A stretch of 64,000 nucleotides of DNA from Escherichia phage JEP8: sequence record MT764208.1. The stretch is one strand, 5' to 3'. A program made the position numbers and the translations under genes. Positions 24,853-28,921 of this stretch are shown here, piece after piece; the first letter of the stretch is position 1; every line of letters begins with the position of its first letter. The notes beneath the pieces are model-generated. The model worked only from the letters and a program-made list of their open reading frames with translations, searched no databases and was not told the origin of the DNA.

Positions 24853-25881
24853 TTAAAATTTACAATATTTCATAAACCGCATTTTAGCCATCAGACCTTG
24901 TACGGTGTTCTCTTTGATATATTCCATGATCTGGTCGCGTGTAGCGCCCTCGTCCTGAATCATGGCGTTAACGTCTTTAGAATGCCACGGACAACGATCC
25001 CACAAAACAATCTTTTCCCCTGCATTGATAAACTTTTCCAGTCGGTGCATTGTATCGGCAGACCGTGGTTCCGCATCAAGTACAAACACTCGCTGGTCTG
25101 GGAAAGGGATTTCATCTAATCCCAAAGTACCGCCAGTAATTGCACACCCGTTATCAATAAACAATGAATCGATCGGACCTTCTAAGAAATACACTGGTTT
25201 ACTCGGATCGGCGCGTTCAAGACCATAGACCTTACTCGCTAACTCATGAGTTTTAATCGTCATATATTTGGTCTTTCCGTAATCCTTTCTCAATGCTCGC
25301 CCCTGAATGGATTCTATCTTGTTCTCGCGGTTAAAGATAGGAATCACTAAACGCGGTTCCGGTTGTGGATTCTTGAAAGTATCAGCCTTAATGTGATTTG
25401 CTACCTTTTGCCATTCTCTCGTGAAATACAGAAGATCCCATTTATCGTGAGGAATACAGCGATCACTGACATACTTTATTATAGGATGATTAGCCGGAAG
25501 AGTATCTAACCTCTCGCAGAAAGGCAATGTTTGCACTTTCTTAATCTCCGGCTTTTCTACCTTTTTCAGTGGCTTGAACGTGGTGTTCTTGTGGTCGCCT
25601 TGTTCCTTCCGTCGTTCCATAAGCCATTCCCTGAATAGGTCCGGCTTATACTGTTTGAGAAATTCACCCAACGGCTGATTGTAGTTACAGTTGAAACATC
25701 CGGCTCGCAAACTATCCTTATAGGTATAGATACGGAATCGCGCTTGAGTATGATTTTTCTTTGAGTCACCGCAGATCGGACAACTACAGACCAGCGTAAA
25801 TGAGCTAGTATGCAACCGTTTAAAATTTCGTTCGCCGTATATGGCTTTTTCCGCTATTTCATAATCTGCGTAGTAAATCAT
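24853..25881 (-). CDS. 61: DNA primase gp61
   Basis: 342 aa as in T4; N-terminal zinc finger CSCPICGDS...CFNCNY; synteny between gp56 and gp41. Confidence 0.85.
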   Translation of the reverse strand: MIYYADYEIAEKAIYGERNFKRLHTSSFTLVCSCPICGDSKKNHTQARFRIYTYKDSLRAGCFNCNYNQPLGEFLKQYKPDLFREWLMERRKEQGDHKNTTFKPLKKVEKPEIKKVQTLPFCERLDTLPANHPIIKYVSDRCIPHDKWDLLYFTREWQKVANHIKADTFKNPQPEPRLVIPIFNRENKIESIQGRALRKDYGKTKYMTIKTHELASKVYGLERADPSKPVYFLEGPIDSLFIDNGCAITGGTLGLDEIPFPDQRVFVLDAEPRSADTMHRLEKFINAGEKIVLWDRCPWHSKDVNAMIQDEGATRDQIMEYIKENTVQGLMAKMRFMKYCKF

Positions 25882-25890
25882 ATTAACCTC

Positions 25891-26094
25891 TTATAGCTCA
25901 AATTTCATGAAAGTTCCCACACTTTCATTTTCATTCTCTCCGTTTTCATCTAAGCCAAATTTGTAGACACTACCATCTGGCGATGTGTAAGAGAATACAC
26001 GAAAACGGCCTACCGAATCAAGTTCTGCAAATTCATATTCTTTTCCGGCTTCAAAAAGTGCATATGTGCTTTTAAGACATTTCATCGTAATCAT
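25891..26094 (-). CDS. hypothetical protein (67 aa)
   Basis: ATG overlaps upstream stop (ATGA). Confidence 0.5.
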   Translation of the reverse strand: MITMKCLKSTYALFEAGKEYEFAELDSVGRFRVFSYTSPDGSVYKFGLDENGENENESVGTFMKFEL

Positions 26095-26249
26095 TTAAGC
26101 GCCACCGACAACAGAATGAGAACTACACCAACATACATTGTGATCTCGGATAACTTTTCTGTTTTTGTTTTGTGTCCAGATAATCCGAAAACAACAACAC
26201 CGACAATAGCGGACAGCAAGCCAACGATAAACATGATGATACTAAGCAC
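26091..26249 (-). CDS. small membrane protein (about 52 aa, GTG start)
   Basis: AAGGAG 6-7 nt before GTG; two hydrophobic segments; stop overlaps next ATG. Confidence 0.4.
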   Translation of the reverse strand: MLSIIMFIVGLLSAIVGVVVFGLSGHKTKTEKLSEITMYVGVVLILLSVALK

Positions 26250-26418
26250 CGTCTTTCTCCTTTTTGCGTTTTTCTTTACCCGCTACACTAGGTCCACGAT
26301 TGGTAATAGATCCGCTCGTTTCACCTGCTGCGATCTTCTCAGGATTGCCGCCAGCATCGCCAGCGGTCATATCTTCTTTGAGTTTATTTTCTTCAACAAA
26401 CTGTTTAAATCCAATCAT
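26242..26418 (-). CDS. small Gly-rich basic protein (58 aa)
   Basis: ATG overlaps stop of 26415-26792 (ATGA). Confidence 0.4.
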   Translation of the reverse strand: MIGFKQFVEENKLKEDMTAGDAGGNPEKIAAGETSGSITNRGPSVAGKEKRKKEKDGA

Positions 26419-26792
26419 AGAATAATCTCTTTCAGTAAGTCAACAATCTGGTCTTTCGTCAGTTTATCCTGATTCTCTACAATCTTGATAACACAAGCAT
26501 TAACATCTTTTCGAGTCACGCGGGAGATCGTTTTAATACGATGAAACGGTTCGTAGAAATATACTGCTTCATTATAGAGCGCAGCAATTTTTCGACGCAT
26601 TTGATCTTTATCTGACAAGAAAACAAGTGCTGTTTTATGACCTTCTACACCCGCCACGTTATATAGTTCAGCAACACCCCAGCGACCTTCCGGTTCAATC
26701 ATTCCGGCGTGTTTACCGTCGATAAAAATAAGAATATCTCCGTTGAATGCGGTTTTGAATGCTACATCTTCCGGCGTAATCATATTTTTCAT
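26415..26792 (-). CDS. hypothetical protein (125 aa)
   Basis: AAGGAG Shine-Dalgarno. Confidence 0.55.
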   Translation of the reverse strand: MKNMITPEDVAFKTAFNGDILIFIDGKHAGMIEPEGRWGVAELYNVAGVEGHKTALVFLSDKDQMRRKIAALYNEAVYFYEPFHRIKTISRVTRKDVNACVIKIVENQDKLTKDQIVDLLKEIIL

Positions 26793-26822
26793 AATATAGT
26801 CTCCTTAGAGTTTCATTATAGA

Positions 26823-27458
26823 TCAAGCGAATGTAGAAAGCAAATGTTTTGTTTCTTTCAGTTGTCGTTCAAGATCTTTGCGTTTCTCTTTAAGTTGCAT
26901 TTTAGCATTATTTCGCTGTTTTTCAACATCTTTATCAATGCTCTTATTCCAGTTATCAATATCAGAATAAGTTGGCATACCCAATTCTAGACCTAATGCG
27001 GTTGGATACAGGGTAACAGTCCATAAACCGCTAATCTTCTTAAATAGGTCTGGGTGTAGTGTACTATCTACATCTTCCGGTGTCAACTCTTTTTCTTCTT
27101 TCAGTGGTGGGATCTCGTCATATGGTTCCAGCGCATTTACTTTAATATCAGATACCTCATCAAAGAATCCGCGTACATCCGCAGGAAATACACAAGCAAT
27201 TTCCCAACCGTGATCACGCAGAGAAGTAATATTTTTCACTCCCCCACCATGTGTGATGATTGATGTGACATTGCCATCGAGGTCCACCGAATTTACGAGA
27301 AATGGCTTATCGTCTGTCAGATCATTATAAAACTGTGCTTCGGCTGTAGTCATCTCCAGAAACAGATCTCGGATCGGACGACCATCAGGTGCGTTACCTT
27401 CCTTGAGAGTATAAAAGCGACTTACGATCCATTTTGGCGGTAAAGCATTAGCGGTCAT
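26823..27458 (-). CDS. hypothetical protein (211 aa)
   Basis: AGGAGA Shine-Dalgarno. Confidence 0.55.
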   Translation of the reverse strand: MTANALPPKWIVSRFYTLKEGNAPDGRPIRDLFLEMTTAEAQFYNDLTDDKPFLVNSVDLDGNVTSIITHGGGVKNITSLRDHGWEIACVFPADVRGFFDEVSDIKVNALEPYDEIPPLKEEKELTPEDVDSTLHPDLFKKISGLWTVTLYPTALGLELGMPTYSDIDNWNKSIDKDVEKQRNNAKMQLKEKRKDLERQLKETKHLLSTFA

Positions 27459-27508: not shown

Positions 27509-28921
27509 TTAGAAAGTCATGGTATTTGCTAGCTCGTCGAGTTTTTCGCGTTTCTCGGCTTGCTGTGCGCTTTGTGGTTTAACTTGTGCATTCTCCTGAT
27601 CTGCGATCTGGTTTGGTACTTCATACCAACGCTGATTGCCTTTCTTCACACCAACGTTAAACCGTGAATAATAGTTCTTATCACCGTAACGAGACTTGAT
27701 CTGCTTCATGAGTTGGACGCCCATTTTAGCCAGGTCTTCGGTTTCGATAACACCCAACATAAAGTCGGCAGTAGCCGGAAGACCTGCTGATTCAGCGGTA
27801 TCACTCATGTTAAGGTCGGAAGCATCCCAACCCGCGCGGGTAGTCTGTGCCGCAGTCCAACCAACAACATCCCACTTAACAAAAAATCCTCGCAGTTCTT
27901 CCGCAATCGCCTTAACTAGTGTGTAACTATTTTCAGAGTATACACGCAAGCGAGACGATGCGCAAATCCCCAGATAGTCAACAATCACAACATCAGGTTT
28001 AAACTGTTTCTTGAGTCGCAATTCATTCATTAACGCCTCAAAGTGATTGGAGTTCGCGCCACCAGTCGGATACTGCTTGATCATCAATTTTCCAACCGGA
28101 CGATCTCCGATCTTCTTATTCTTAACACGCTTCATGCGTGCGGAATATTCCGCAAAAGAAACATTACCATTATCCAATTCATCTAATGTAATGTCAAGCA
28201 AGTTTGCGTCGATACGTTTTGCTACTACATGCTCTGCCATCTCCATTGAGATATACAATACATCATAACCACATTCCATATAATCCGCAGCAAGAGAACA
28301 CAAGCCAAGCGATTTACCAACGTTTACACCAGCAAGCAACACATTTAGCGTTTTTCTTTCCGCCCCTCCTTTCGTGATTTTATTCAACATCGGCAGCTTA
28401 AACGGGATCTTATTCGCCTTAGTCTGATATAGCAAGAATCGTTTTTCAAAGTCATTAAACCAGTCATGACCTACATCAGAATCAAACGTAATGGATAGTG
28501 CTTCCTGCATGATCTCAGGAATAGCACCCTCACTCGGCAATTTCTTATTCTGTTTCTCTTTTGGTAGTTGTGCGTTCGCCTGAATCTCTAGCGCCCGTGA
28601 CATTGCATTATACATGGCACGGTCACGAATAAATTTTTCGGTTTCCTTCATTAACCAATCAAGGTCTTCCGGTGTATTCTCAAGCGAATCAAGAAGAGTT
28701 TTAGCCCCTTCATATGTTGTCTGATTGCCTCTCTCCTTGTCTAAAGCAATCTGTAATGCAGTTGGCGTAGGAATATTGGAATATTCGTCTACGTGCTTTT
28801 TAATCAGCTTATAAATCAGTTTTTCTTCGTCTTCGGTGAAGTAGTCCGCTTTAAGGTGAGGCCATACATTCGTAAAGAATGCGCCATTGTAAATCAACTG
28901 TGAAAAGATAGTTTTAATCAT
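27509..28921 (-). CDS. 41: replicative DNA helicase gp41 (DnaB-like)
   Basis: Walker A GVNVGKS, SMEM, RecA-like fold; 470 aa vs 475 in T4. Confidence 0.9.
   Translation of the reverse strand: MIKTIFSQLIYNGAFFTNVWPHLKADYFTEDEEKLIYKLIKKHVDEYSNIPTPTALQIALDKERGNQTTYEGAKTLLDSLENTPEDLDWLMKETEKFIRDRAMYNAMSRALEIQANAQLPKEKQNKKLPSEGAIPEIMQEALSITFDSDVGHDWFNDFEKRFLLYQTKANKIPFKLPMLNKITKGGAERKTLNVLLAGVNVGKSLGLCSLAADYMECGYDVLYISMEMAEHVVAKRIDANLLDITLDELDNGNVSFAEYSARMKRVKNKKIGDRPVGKLMIKQYPTGGANSNHFEALMNELRLKKQFKPDVVIVDYLGICASSRLRVYSENSYTLVKAIAEELRGFFVKWDVVGWTAAQTTRAGWDASDLNMSDTAESAGLPATADFMLGVIETEDLAKMGVQLMKQIKSRYGDKNYYSRFNVGVKKGNQRWYEVPNQIADQENAQVKPQSAQQAEKREKLDELANTMTF

Follow-up and report, generated by a model that had tools for sequence, protein, structure and literature searches.

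The DNA analyzed here is a stretch of 64,000 nucleotides (the window) from Escherichia phage JEP8 (MT764208.1), a Krischvirus, or RB49-like, T4-type coliphage. The region of interest is 99.5% identical to the DNA of RB49-group phages, has the same annotated gene order as the RB49-group records, and is covered by 58 records. Between helicase gene 41 and primase gene 61, the minus strand carries two small open reading frames (ORFs), one of 58 amino acids (26242-26418; MIGFKQFVEENKLKEDMTAGDAGGNPEKIAAGETSGSITNRGPSVAGKEKRKKEKDGA) and one of 52 amino acids (26091-26249; MLSIIMFIVGLLSAIVGVVVFGLSGHKTKTEKLSEITMYVGVVLILLSVALK). Every annotated gene from uvsX to srd is on this same strand, and the block uvsX-40-41-...-61 is early and transcribed leftward. 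An earlier note, made from the sequence alone, had described the two frames as translationally coupled micro-ORFs hidden under a spurious plus strand ORF; both frames are present, and each of the sequence features it listed was found where it had been placed.

The two ORFs belong to a chain of five genes, namely Dc2, Dc1, the 58-aa gene, the 52-aa gene, and an acidic 67-aa gene, the last four of which are linked by overlaps of stop and start codons. Dc1 (125 aa, 26415-26792, minus strand; named dc1 in the RB49 annotation; phrog_16174, E 5e-86) ends in a TGA that forms, with the start codon of the 58-aa gene, the overlap ATGA. The 58-aa ORF then overlaps the 52-aa ORF by 8 nt. The latter starts at a GTG (26249-26247), and 7 nt separate this codon from the Shine-Dalgarno (SD) sequence AAGGAG (26257-26262, minus strand), which is located within the coding sequence of the 58-aa gene and is surrounded by RNA that is unstructured (z = +0.86). 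The TGA of the 52-aa gene overlaps, again as ATGA, the ATG of the 67-aa gene (25891-26094, minus strand; phrog_9181, E 4e-34; pI 4.5). Both minus strand frames were intact in 16 of 16 relatives examined, which include metagenome contigs with independent gene calls, and their lengths, the overlaps (ATGA, 8 nt, ATGA), and the AAGGAG site were identical in all of them. Given these stop/start overlaps, ribosomes probably pass from gene to gene, and the geometry points to probable translational coupling of the last four genes of the chain. No late-promoter consensus was found near the micro-ORFs. A scan for promoters picked up a sigma-70-like match at 26443-26414; its -10 hexamer coincides with the start codon (ATG) of the 58-aa gene, and the match is probably due to chance. 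Neither the 58-aa protein nor the 52-aa protein nor the region had an above-threshold match in Pfam, NCBIfam, or Rfam.

The plus strand of the same interval contains an ORF of 118 aa (26116-26472), which is the longest ORF there. In the window as a whole, 22 plus strand ORFs, this one included, reach 100 aa or more, and the majority lie within the minus strand gene block. If this ORF were the real gene, the micro-ORFs would be open by chance. It remains open in JSE despite approximately 30% divergence over the 52-aa region, where its apparent dN/dS is 0.34. However, dN/dS across the six frames separated the sense frame (0.23) from the shadow frame (0.34) weakly, and the low apparent value of the plus strand frame is explained by the wobble positions that it has in common with the 52-aa gene. 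Amino acid replacements in the plus strand frame are non-conservative (mean BLOSUM62 -0.33 to -0.5), its codon-usage log-odds of -0.23 bits/codon resemble those of other antisense ORFs, and no SD-like sequence precedes its start. An in-frame stop interrupts it in L011, L012, and L014, and its stop-free stretch shrinks from 156 to 102 codons in all six of the relatives L011-L016, while both minus strand ORFs are intact in these relatives. The ORF also runs against every annotated gene of the block, overlaps the 58-aa gene, whose minus strand frame is conserved in 1440 phage records, and is absent from the annotation of all 9 public records inspected. A coding role for the plus strand ORF is thus extremely improbable; it is a chance shadow of the micro-genes, and the earlier description of it as spurious, without a ribosome-binding site, and opposed to local transcription stands. 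In this comparison dN/dS carried less weight than the codon-position counts, the BLOSUM scores, codon usage, and the stop found in distant relatives.

The 52-aa gene has a codon-usage log-odds of +0.20 bits/codon and remains open across approximately 30% nucleotide divergence with a dN/dS of about 0.23. No other segment of the region is nearly as diverged; in JSE, identity is approximately 70% over the 52-aa region and 97-98% in the flanks. The gene comes in two allele types that differ deeply, although the sequences on either side are almost the same, a pattern that is new; these are old alleles that have been swapped by recombination. Such divergence would also be expected of a decaying or non-functional spacer between the 58-aa and 67-aa genes, open by chance. 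The omission of the gene from several records and the lack of its SD in phage E26 are consistent with a spacer as well. However, 46 substitutions in 144 nt of this gene have introduced no stops or indels, and the substitutions are biased toward the third codon position (16/6/24 at positions 1/2/3 in JSE and 12/2/28 in L011). Replacements between the allele types are conservative in the sense frame (mean BLOSUM62 +0.45 to +1.0), the start codon and SD are conserved, and both alleles retain a nearly invariant loop and a confident two-helix pattern. A spacer is, accordingly, very improbable, and we regard the 52-aa ORF as a gene.

Public records of this gene are inconsistent, giving it 52 aa, 47 aa, or leaving it out. 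The 47-aa form, which starts at an internal ATG (26234-26232), is annotated in the RB49 and Phi1 RefSeq records (RB49p018 and phi1p018), and ATG is a commoner start codon than GTG. The internal ATG has no SD within reach, however, because AAGGAG is 22 nt upstream of it. One allele type has GTG as its start codon, and JSE, GEC-3S, and L011-L016 have ATG in that position; in these same sequences the internal Met6 codon is replaced by Val. This alternation of GTG and ATG at one codon indicates that the 52-aa form is correct. Likewise, the phrog_18360 profile matches the protein over its full length (residues 1-52 of 52, E 2e-32), and metagenome gene callers report 52 aa. The internal start is improbable, although less so than the spacer, and the RefSeq entries should be changed from the 47-aa form to the 52-aa start that follows AAGGAG (GTG or ATG).

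The 58-aa gene is, by sequence, the Krischvirus homologue of T4 gp61.1. It is labeled Gp61.1 in RB49 (RB49p019), JSE, and Phi1; its product matches the phrog_1823 profile over residues 1-56 (E 5e-24), as does T4 gp61.1 (E 3e-33), and the T4 and window proteins are 48% identical (tblastn E 5e-13). In the window, RB49, T4, Aeromonas phage 31, Slopekvirus, and a KVP40-like phage, the family member lies between genes 41 and 61 and is encoded on their strand. Family alignments show a core motif, AGD-x-GG...I-A-x-G-x-T-S-G...G-P followed by a Lys-rich tail, that is present in the 58-aa protein. The codon usage of the gene is of the sense type (log-odds +0.66 bits/codon). Tblastn with the 58-aa protein accounted for the relatives in 1440 phage records mentioned above, while a search of 5.8 billion proteins by word index yielded, for the 58-aa and 52-aa proteins alike, close relatives from Krischvirus and nothing else. 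A full HMMER search with gp61.1 also matched giant bacterial repeat proteins (P0013, P0015, and P0037); inspection of P0013 and P0015 revealed only a short strand motif, ITIAAGQTSGTV, in many repeats, and these matches were taken as spurious or convergent.

The earlier note had called the 58-aa product Gly-rich and basic. It is Gly-rich (15.5%) and only marginally basic (pI 8.0, net charge +1), the C-terminal 12 residues carrying a net charge of +3 and residues 1-46 a net charge of -2. The protein is soluble and, by itself, probably disordered. The Lys/Glu-rich C-terminal tail (GKEKRKKEKDGA, 26245-26280, minus strand) is an instance of the K-rich tail common to the family. It is partly lost in E26, where a natural 17-bp deletion (26259-26275) shifts the frame of the tail and takes the SD of the 52-aa gene with it; provided that the E26 record is accurate, laboratory growth depends on neither the tail nor the SD.

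The remainder of gp61.1 resembles the N-terminal region of the major capsid protein gp23. BLASTP aligned gp61.1 with residues 62-100 of RB49 gp23 (49% identity over 39 aa, E 2e-10), hhalign of gp61.1 against gp23 gave a probability of 95.8% (E 6.5e-9), and a sequence search of the PDB with gp61.1 returned gp23 chains, over residues 64-101, as the sole matches at E up to 1. T4 gp61.1 (residues 4-46) aligns with gp23 (59-101) without gaps and with 17 of 43 identities, an alignment that places E10|D11 on E65|A66. In the window protein, L13-K14-E15|D16 corresponds to gp23 L-T-E65|A66, the site cut by the gp21 protease, and in 25 of the 29 representatives of the family a [LIVMF]-x-E motif keeps a constant spacing to the AGD core. 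The conserved core that follows (residues 16-41; 26296-26373, minus strand) is homologous to the N-fist of gp23*, which comprises T4 gp23 residues 66-91 (PMC7136217). According to T4 capsid structure papers, the N-fist has no ordered structure within the prohead and subsequently takes part in inter-capsomer contacts and Soc binding. These alignments suggest that gp61.1 reproduces, as a protein of its own, the gp23 maturation cleavage site together with the N-fist, a relationship that is new. They do not make the gene a capsid gene; it encodes 58 aa compared to the approximately 520 aa, with HK97-fold A and P domains, of gp23, only 38-39 residues align (to gp23 62-101), and the name "major capsid protein" given to it in the W115 and Makalu records is a misnomer.

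The first 15 codons of gp61.1 (26374-26418, minus strand) encode a start, M-I-G-F-K-Q-F-V-E-E, that resembles a capsid targeting sequence (CTS). The CTS positions that are key to targeting and processing are 4, 7, 8, and 10, occupied by an aromatic residue, Phe, Ile/Leu, and Glu, respectively (PMC9026906). The window protein has F4, F7, V8, and E10, and T4 gp61.1 has F4, F7, I8, and E10. RB49 UvsW.1 has a similar start (MISFKRFLVE), which limits the specificity of the resemblance. Long-form relatives of gp61.1 (phrog_2086) have a helical domain of approximately 100 aa instead of the 10-residue CTS; Foldseek with one of these relatives returned no solved structure and only unnamed viral proteins.

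These resemblances are consistent with more than one possible scenario for the function of gp61.1. The scenario that we prefer, tentatively, is a role in the phage head. The protein would be recruited to the scaffolding core of the prohead, as are the N-terminus of gp23 and the internal proteins. Cleavage by the gp21 protease after Glu15 (or Glu10) would then release a small basic peptide, which would take up contacts of the N-fist type or bind DNA. This Lys-rich peptide might fill N-fist docking sites left vacant near vertices, or be injected with the DNA. In the long forms, the domain of approximately 100 aa would be a prodomain in place of the short CTS-like start. A search of the literature on virions found no report of gp61.1, the T4 capsid cryo-EM papers make no mention of extra N-fist-like density, and T4 gp61.1 was not detected in the T4 time-resolved infected-cell proteome.

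Alternatively, gp61.1 could be an early cytoplasmic decoy that mimics the nascent N-terminal region of gp23, binds a host factor or defense sensor that detects the head protein, and is not packaged. T4 61.1 shares the 41-61 interval with dmd, tifA (61.4), sp, and adfA (61.2), and Srikant et al. regarded this interval as a possible anti-TA island, its other genes being candidates. Early synthesis would suit a decoy, as the T4 61.1 transcript is classed as early and the window offers no late promoter nearby; the T4 ipII and ipIII transcripts are early too, however, so early transcription of 61.1 does not exclude packaging. Capsid proteins are known triggers of defense, as with Gol/Lit on gp23. 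Gp61.1 diverges from gp23 after approximately residue 96, just ahead of the block from approximately residue 100 that is the best conserved between T4 and RB49 gp23. We take this block to be the Gol region, the Gol core presumably starting near residue 93-100. Against a decoy, the family is conserved and syntenic between 41 and 61 in phages of Escherichia, Klebsiella, Aeromonas, Acinetobacter, and Vibrio, and the window contains no homologue of the T4 neighbors AdfA, Sp, or TifA (Dc2 is, therefore, not AdfA). Synteny across hosts together with the absence of these neighbors looks phage-intrinsic more than like a host-specific counter-defense, and the conserved [LIVMF]-x-E motif would have no obvious role in a decoy. 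We consider a decoy unlikely, and somewhat less probable than the head role.

The product of the 52-aa gene is predicted to be a helical hairpin of the inner membrane, in line with the two-helix membrane protein proposed earlier. Hydropathy shows two hydrophobic segments, and AlphaFold2 predicts helices at residues 2-23 and 29-51 (mean pLDDT 72.7). Predicted transmembrane helix 1 covers residues 2-23 (26181-26246, minus strand; Kyte-Doolittle 15-residue means up to 2.9) and predicted helix 2 residues 36-51 (26097-26144, minus strand). Between them, at the hydropathy minimum, is a charged loop (SGHKTKTEKLSE, residues 24-35; 26145-26180, minus strand) that is part of the longest invariant stretch. 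Columns V18-G25 and K27-E35 were invariant in a six-protein alignment from which JSE and GEC-3S were left out; these two phages have two conservative changes in these columns, V20F and L33I. By the positive-inside rule the loop probably faces the cytoplasm, and this loop, SGxKTKTEKLSE, is likely the working surface of the protein.

Tblastn with the 52-aa protein matched 57 records, all of them Krischvirus, and the family forms six 90%-identity clusters among 5.8 billion proteins; as far as sequence searches reach, the protein is limited to the genus Krischvirus. No homologue of known function was found among family profiles, tblastn matches, 5.8 billion proteins, or the PDB, where the sequence search returned noise only. 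The restriction to Krischvirus and the two recombination-swapped alleles suggest an accessory role at the envelope, possibly superinfection exclusion or interference with a host membrane protein, although we offer this with even less assurance than the head role of gp61.1.

Taken together, these data make it highly likely that the locus holds two genuine small early genes on the minus strand and, opposite them, a chance shadow. The value of this for gene finding is small, as the shadow is an ordinary one and both genes have long been present in PHROGs and in the public annotations of RB49-group phages. The micro-ORFs were thus hidden, as the earlier note put it, only relative to a mechanical ORF list. 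The practical gain is annotation hygiene, namely the start of the 52-aa gene, the restoration of that gene where it has been omitted, and the erroneous "major capsid protein" name. The likeness of gp61.1 to the gp23 cleavage site and N-fist yields a concrete hypothesis that is cheaply testable in T4; if true, gp61.1 would be a previously unrecognized head component encoded in a replication gene cluster. A wider reading, in which the gp61.1 family, present throughout T4-type phages, is a packaged, gp21-cut copy of the gp23 propeptide end, cleavage site, and N-fist and, separately, the 52-aa gene is an allelic "cassette" that selection at the cell envelope keeps in two forms, is possible and no firmer than our tentative view of the head role.

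Among known systems, class II (two-TMD) holins share with the 52-aa protein two transmembrane helices and small size, and a sub-threshold match to TIGR01673 holin_LLH was obtained (E 0.095; 13 bits compared to a cut-off of 34.75). We rejected this assignment; the gene sits between gp61.1 and the 67-aa gene, upstream of primase, with no adjoining endolysin, it is part of an early block with no late promoter nearby, and its product ends in ...SVALK, without a charged C-terminal tail. T4 Sp (spackle) and Imm are likewise small, early, and envelope-targeted, and Sp is encoded in the 41-61 interval of T4. The likeness goes no further than location and size. Sp is a secreted protein of 97 aa with a signal peptide, and the 52-aa protein, being a hairpin, has hardly any mass outside the membrane; tblastn matches of the latter were confined to Krischvirus, and T4 Sp, the one of the two that was compared directly, had no significant match in the window.

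For gp61.1 the closest counterpart is T4 gp61.1 (54 aa, UniProt P39228), with which it shares phrog_1823, the position between 41 and 61, the K-rich tail, and the motif M-[VT]-AGD-x-GGNPE-x-I-x-x-G-x-TSG...GP. The Krischvirus protein differs by five extra residues between F-x-x-F-[IV]-x-E and the core, and two extra small genes separate Krischvirus 61.1 from gene 61. With regard to the CTS of the T4 internal proteins, T4 gp61.1 starts MKTFKEFIKE, compared to MKTYQEFIAE for IPII and IPIII and MKTFKEF for IPI. A change of the P1 Glu to Asp blocks processing of the CTS. The window protein is similarly small with a basic tail, but has Val rather than Ile/Leu at position 8. Finally, gp61.1 is similar to gp23 (PDB 6UZC, 7VS5, and 5VF3; approximately residues 59-101) in a stretch that runs from the cleavage site through the N-fist into the beginning of the N-arm, with equal spacing in the two proteins from the P1 Glu to the G-D dipeptide. 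In contrast to gp23, it has no HK97-fold body, and after the G-P dipeptide its Lys-rich tail replaces the rest of the N-arm.

The 1.1 kb surrounding the two micro-ORFs was 99.5% identical to phages of the RB49 group (genus Krischvirus, Straboviridae), and the region was covered in 58 phage records. The genes of RB49 lie on one strand in the order uvsX, 40, 41 (helicase), dc2, dc1, "Gp61.1" (RB49p019), RB49p018, RB49p017, 61 (primase), 56, modB, srd. ORFs on the - strand of the window matched this order: gene 41 (27509-28921), Dc2 (26823-27458), Dc1 (26415-26792), the 58-aa ORF (RB49p019; 26242-26418), the 52-aa ORF (RB49p018; 26091-26249), a 67-aa ORF (RB49p017; 25891-26094), and primase (24853-25881). 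The Dc1 stop and the 58-aa start overlapped as ATGA, the 58-aa and 52-aa ORFs overlapped by 8 nt, and the join between the 52-aa and 67-aa ORFs was again an ATGA overlap. The 52-aa ORF began at GTG (26249-26247), 7 nt beyond AAGGAG (26262-26257). From this geometry, we infer that the overlapping stops and starts may pass translation from Dc1 to gp61.1, then to the 52-aa gene and the 67-aa gene, and that the strong internal Shine-Dalgarno sequence would allow separate ribosome entry for the 52-aa gene; the RNA around that start was computed to be unstructured. The earlier note had these sequence details right; its description of the 58-aa protein as basic was inexact, as the pI is 8.0, the net charge is +1, and positive charge is limited to the last 12 residues. 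Elsewhere in the interval, metagenome contigs L011 and L013-L016 had an additional gene of 196 aa (locus positions 668-1258), which separates helicase gene 41 from Dc2 and is absent from the window, and the short Dc2-Dc1 spacer was unalignable between the window (26415-27458, -) and metagenomic relatives (33% identity). These differences show that the 41-61 interval is plastic.

Codon-usage log-odds, trained on 27 long - strand genes of the window, gave the 58-aa ORF +0.66 bits/codon and the 52-aa ORF +0.20, compared to a mean of +0.37 and a minimum of +0.13 for real genes. The 118-aa ORF on the + strand (26116-26472), antisense to both, scored -0.23 bits/codon, within the range of other antisense ORFs; ORFs of 100 aa or longer numbered 22 on the + strand of the window, mostly within the - strand gene block. 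In all 16 relatives examined, ten of them public Krischvirus sequences and six metagenome contigs, the ORFs were again 58 and 52 codons long, the three overlaps were identical, and the GGAG-containing ribosome-binding site was retained; independent gene callers predicted exactly both micro-ORFs in the metagenome contigs. The + strand ORF lacked a Shine-Dalgarno sequence and was interrupted by an in-frame stop within its gp61.1 region in the three contigs translated (L011, L012, and L014); the longest stop-free antisense stretch fell from 156 to 102 codons in L011-L016. No + strand CDS was found here in nine records inspected, annotated or unannotated, and Rfam gave no family match on either strand. 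These data confirm the observation in the earlier note and support its interpretation: both - strand micro-ORFs are genes, and the 118-aa ORF is spurious, as proposed there. Both genes were already known, with annotations in the records of RB49 and its relatives and entries in PHROGs.

The coding status of both Krischvirus products derives from sequence, and the proteins are putative. T4 gp61.1 protein was not detected in a time-resolved T4 proteome, a result tempered by the protein's small size (54 residues) and Lys-rich composition, which make it a poor tryptic target. In phage E26 (MN655998), 17 bp are deleted between AAAGAAA repeats (window 26259-26275, -). Lost with them are part of the gp61.1 Lys-rich tail, with a frameshift, and the AAGGAG of the 52-aa gene; the annotated "Gp61.1" of E26 is the 92-aa frameshifted product. 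This deletion suggests that the gp61.1 tail and the 52-aa gene may both be dispensable in culture.

The 52-aa protein contained two hydrophobic stretches by hydropathy, and its AlphaFold2 model predicted helices at 2-23 and 29-51 (mean pLDDT 72.7), consistent with the two-helix membrane protein first proposed. In a six-protein alignment the helices varied, but the loop joining them and the residues around it (V18-G25 and K27-E35) were invariant; in this stretch JSE and GEC-3S showed just two conservative changes, V20F and L33I. Relatives were confined to Krischvirus (57 phage records; six clusters at 90% identity in a search of 5.8 billion proteins), and family-profile and PDB sequence searches gave no match to any family of known function. 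RB49p124, encoded beside dmd in RB49 (L021, 15012-15170), is another hydrophobic two-helix protein of 52 aa, with no obvious sequence similarity to this one.

Two allele types were present. Type A (the window, RB49, Phi1, and others) has a GTG start and an internal Met6; type B (JSE, GEC-3S, and contigs L011-L016) has ATG at the same start codon and Val in place of Met6, which identifies the 52-aa form as having the correct start. The types differed at 46 of 144 non-overlapping nt, with changes at codon positions 1/2/3 of 16/6/24 (versus JSE) and 12/2/28 (versus L011) and a dN/dS of 0.23 (Nei-Gojobori). Mean BLOSUM62 scores of the replacements were +0.45 to +1.0 (conservative) in the sense frame, against -0.33 to -0.5 (non-conservative) in the shadow frame. 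The alleles were deeply diverged (approximately 70-73% nucleotide identity, dS approximately 1.2; window 26091-26249 (-), L004, L006, and L011-L016), and JSE and GEC-3S carried the divergent allele within flanks 97-98% identical to the window. Divergence started at the start-codon overlap, in the three bases just ahead of the TG that both start codons share, whereas the final 18 nt or so of the gene and the downstream flank were identical. A divergent allele inside near-identical flanks looks like a recombinational cassette swap, and we consider this allelic cassette a modestly interesting lead. RefSeq annotates the gene as 47 aa from the internal ATG in RB49 (NC_005066, 11261-11404) and Phi1 (NC_009821, 11439-11582); W115, JSE, GEC-3S, and ELT4 carry the 52-aa version, UPWr_E1 an N-terminally extended 88-aa version (P0002), and the JK32, MIZ4, and E26 records no CDS. 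The protein could be an inner-membrane hairpin whose conserved loop serves an accessory function in the envelope, for example superinfection exclusion. We regard this role as rather doubtful; it is hinted at only by the existence of two alleles and by the location of sp in the corresponding T4 interval.

The 58-aa protein fell in the same PHROG family as T4 gp61.1 (48% identity), and tblastn found relatives in 1440 phage records (hosts Escherichia, Klebsiella, Aeromonas, Acinetobacter, Vibrio, and others). It was 49% identical over 39 residues to residues 62-100 of RB49 gp23, the major head protein (E 2e-10). T4 gp23 chains (residues 64-101) were the only matches to gp61.1 in a whole-PDB sequence search, and a profile of 13 family members matched T4 gp23 64-101 with a probability of 95.8% (E 6.5e-9). 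T4 gp61.1 4-46 aligned without gaps to T4 gp23 59-101 (17/43 identities), and E10/D11 of gp61.1 fell on E65/A66, the gp21-protease site of gp23. Judged by these alignments, gp61.1 is a paralogue of gp23 segment 59-101, the stretch that includes both the gp21 cleavage site and the N-fist (window 26296-26418 (-); RB49 gene 23, L005 1279-2865; T4 gene 23, L022 3446-5001). The paralogy explains the name "major capsid protein" in some records; no mention of it was found in the accessible literature, and the N-fist relationship is likewise a modestly interesting lead. The N-fist (gp23 residues 66-91; PMC7136217) is disordered within the prohead, and after cleavage and expansion it shifts outward, where it touches four adjacent subunits and contributes to the Soc-binding site.

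Long-form homologues (phrog_2086, 120-165 aa) occurred in many T4-type phages, including Slopekvirus and KVP40-like phages (P0014, P0020-P0024, P0029, P0034, P0036, P0038; L019 1177-1674). A well-predicted N-terminal helical domain replaces the short N-terminus in these proteins and precedes an L-x-E / N-fist-like / K-rich module, the N-fist-like part of which is predicted to be disordered. Foldseek placed related modules within unnamed viral proteins of 387-913 aa. Giant bacterial repeat proteins (P0013, P0015, and P0037; 2500-3600 aa) also scored against gp61.1, probably by convergence or spuriously; in the two inspected, P0013 and P0015, the score arises solely from ITIAAGQTSGTV, a strand motif that recurs in their adhesin-like repeats. 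Of 29 family representatives, 25 had a [LIVMF]-x-E tripeptide at a constant spacing from the AGD core, and the Glu of this tripeptide was invariant in long forms.

The N-terminus of T4 gp61.1 resembles the capsid targeting sequence (CTS) of the T4 internal proteins, of which IPII and IPIII start MKTYQEFIAE and IPI starts MKTFKEF. CTS positions 4, 7, 8, and 10 are reported to be important (PMC9026906); the 58-aa protein has F4, F7, V8, and E10, plus a second motif, L-K-E15/D16, in register with gp23. RB49 UvsW.1 (78 aa, L005 10833-11069) also starts with a CTS-like M-x-x-F-x-x-F-[LV]-x-E sequence, MISFKRFLVE, which limits such a start as evidence, and gp24, a known gp21 substrate, showed a relaxed match to the pattern. 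An N-terminus that resembles both gp23 and the CTS could give gp61.1 affinity for the prohead scaffolding core, where gp21 would cleave on the C-terminal side of the conserved Glu. Cleavage would yield a peptide of approximately 43 residues that starts like mature gp23*, ends in the Lys-rich tail, and might then fill N-fist-type contacts or remain with DNA. We propose this course of recruitment, cleavage, and retention tentatively, as a possible one.

Both micro-ORFs are conserved as coding sequences and lie in a gene block with early or middle transcription, no late-promoter consensus was found near either, and the T4 61.1 transcript is classed as early. The T4 late-promoter consensus TATAAATA had 1 match in 64 kb (position 371, +) versus 5.9 expected from shuffles, which fits a window of almost entirely early and middle genes. 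Early transcription is no argument against a head role, because T4 ipII and ipIII transcripts are early too and head-assembly gene 40 is in the same block.

The 41-61 interval also holds gene 61.1 in T4, Aeromonas phage 31, a Slopekvirus, and a KVP40-like phage. Such broad, syntenic conservation favours a phage-intrinsic role over the main alternative, that gp61.1 is a cytoplasmic decoy of nascent head protein, which we consider unlikely even though it would be in line with the anti-defence neighbours of 61.1 in T4. The 41-61 interval of T4, described as a possible anti-TA island, also has dmd, tifA (61.4), sp, and adfA (61.2), whereas the window, without homologues of these at this position, retains 61.1 only.
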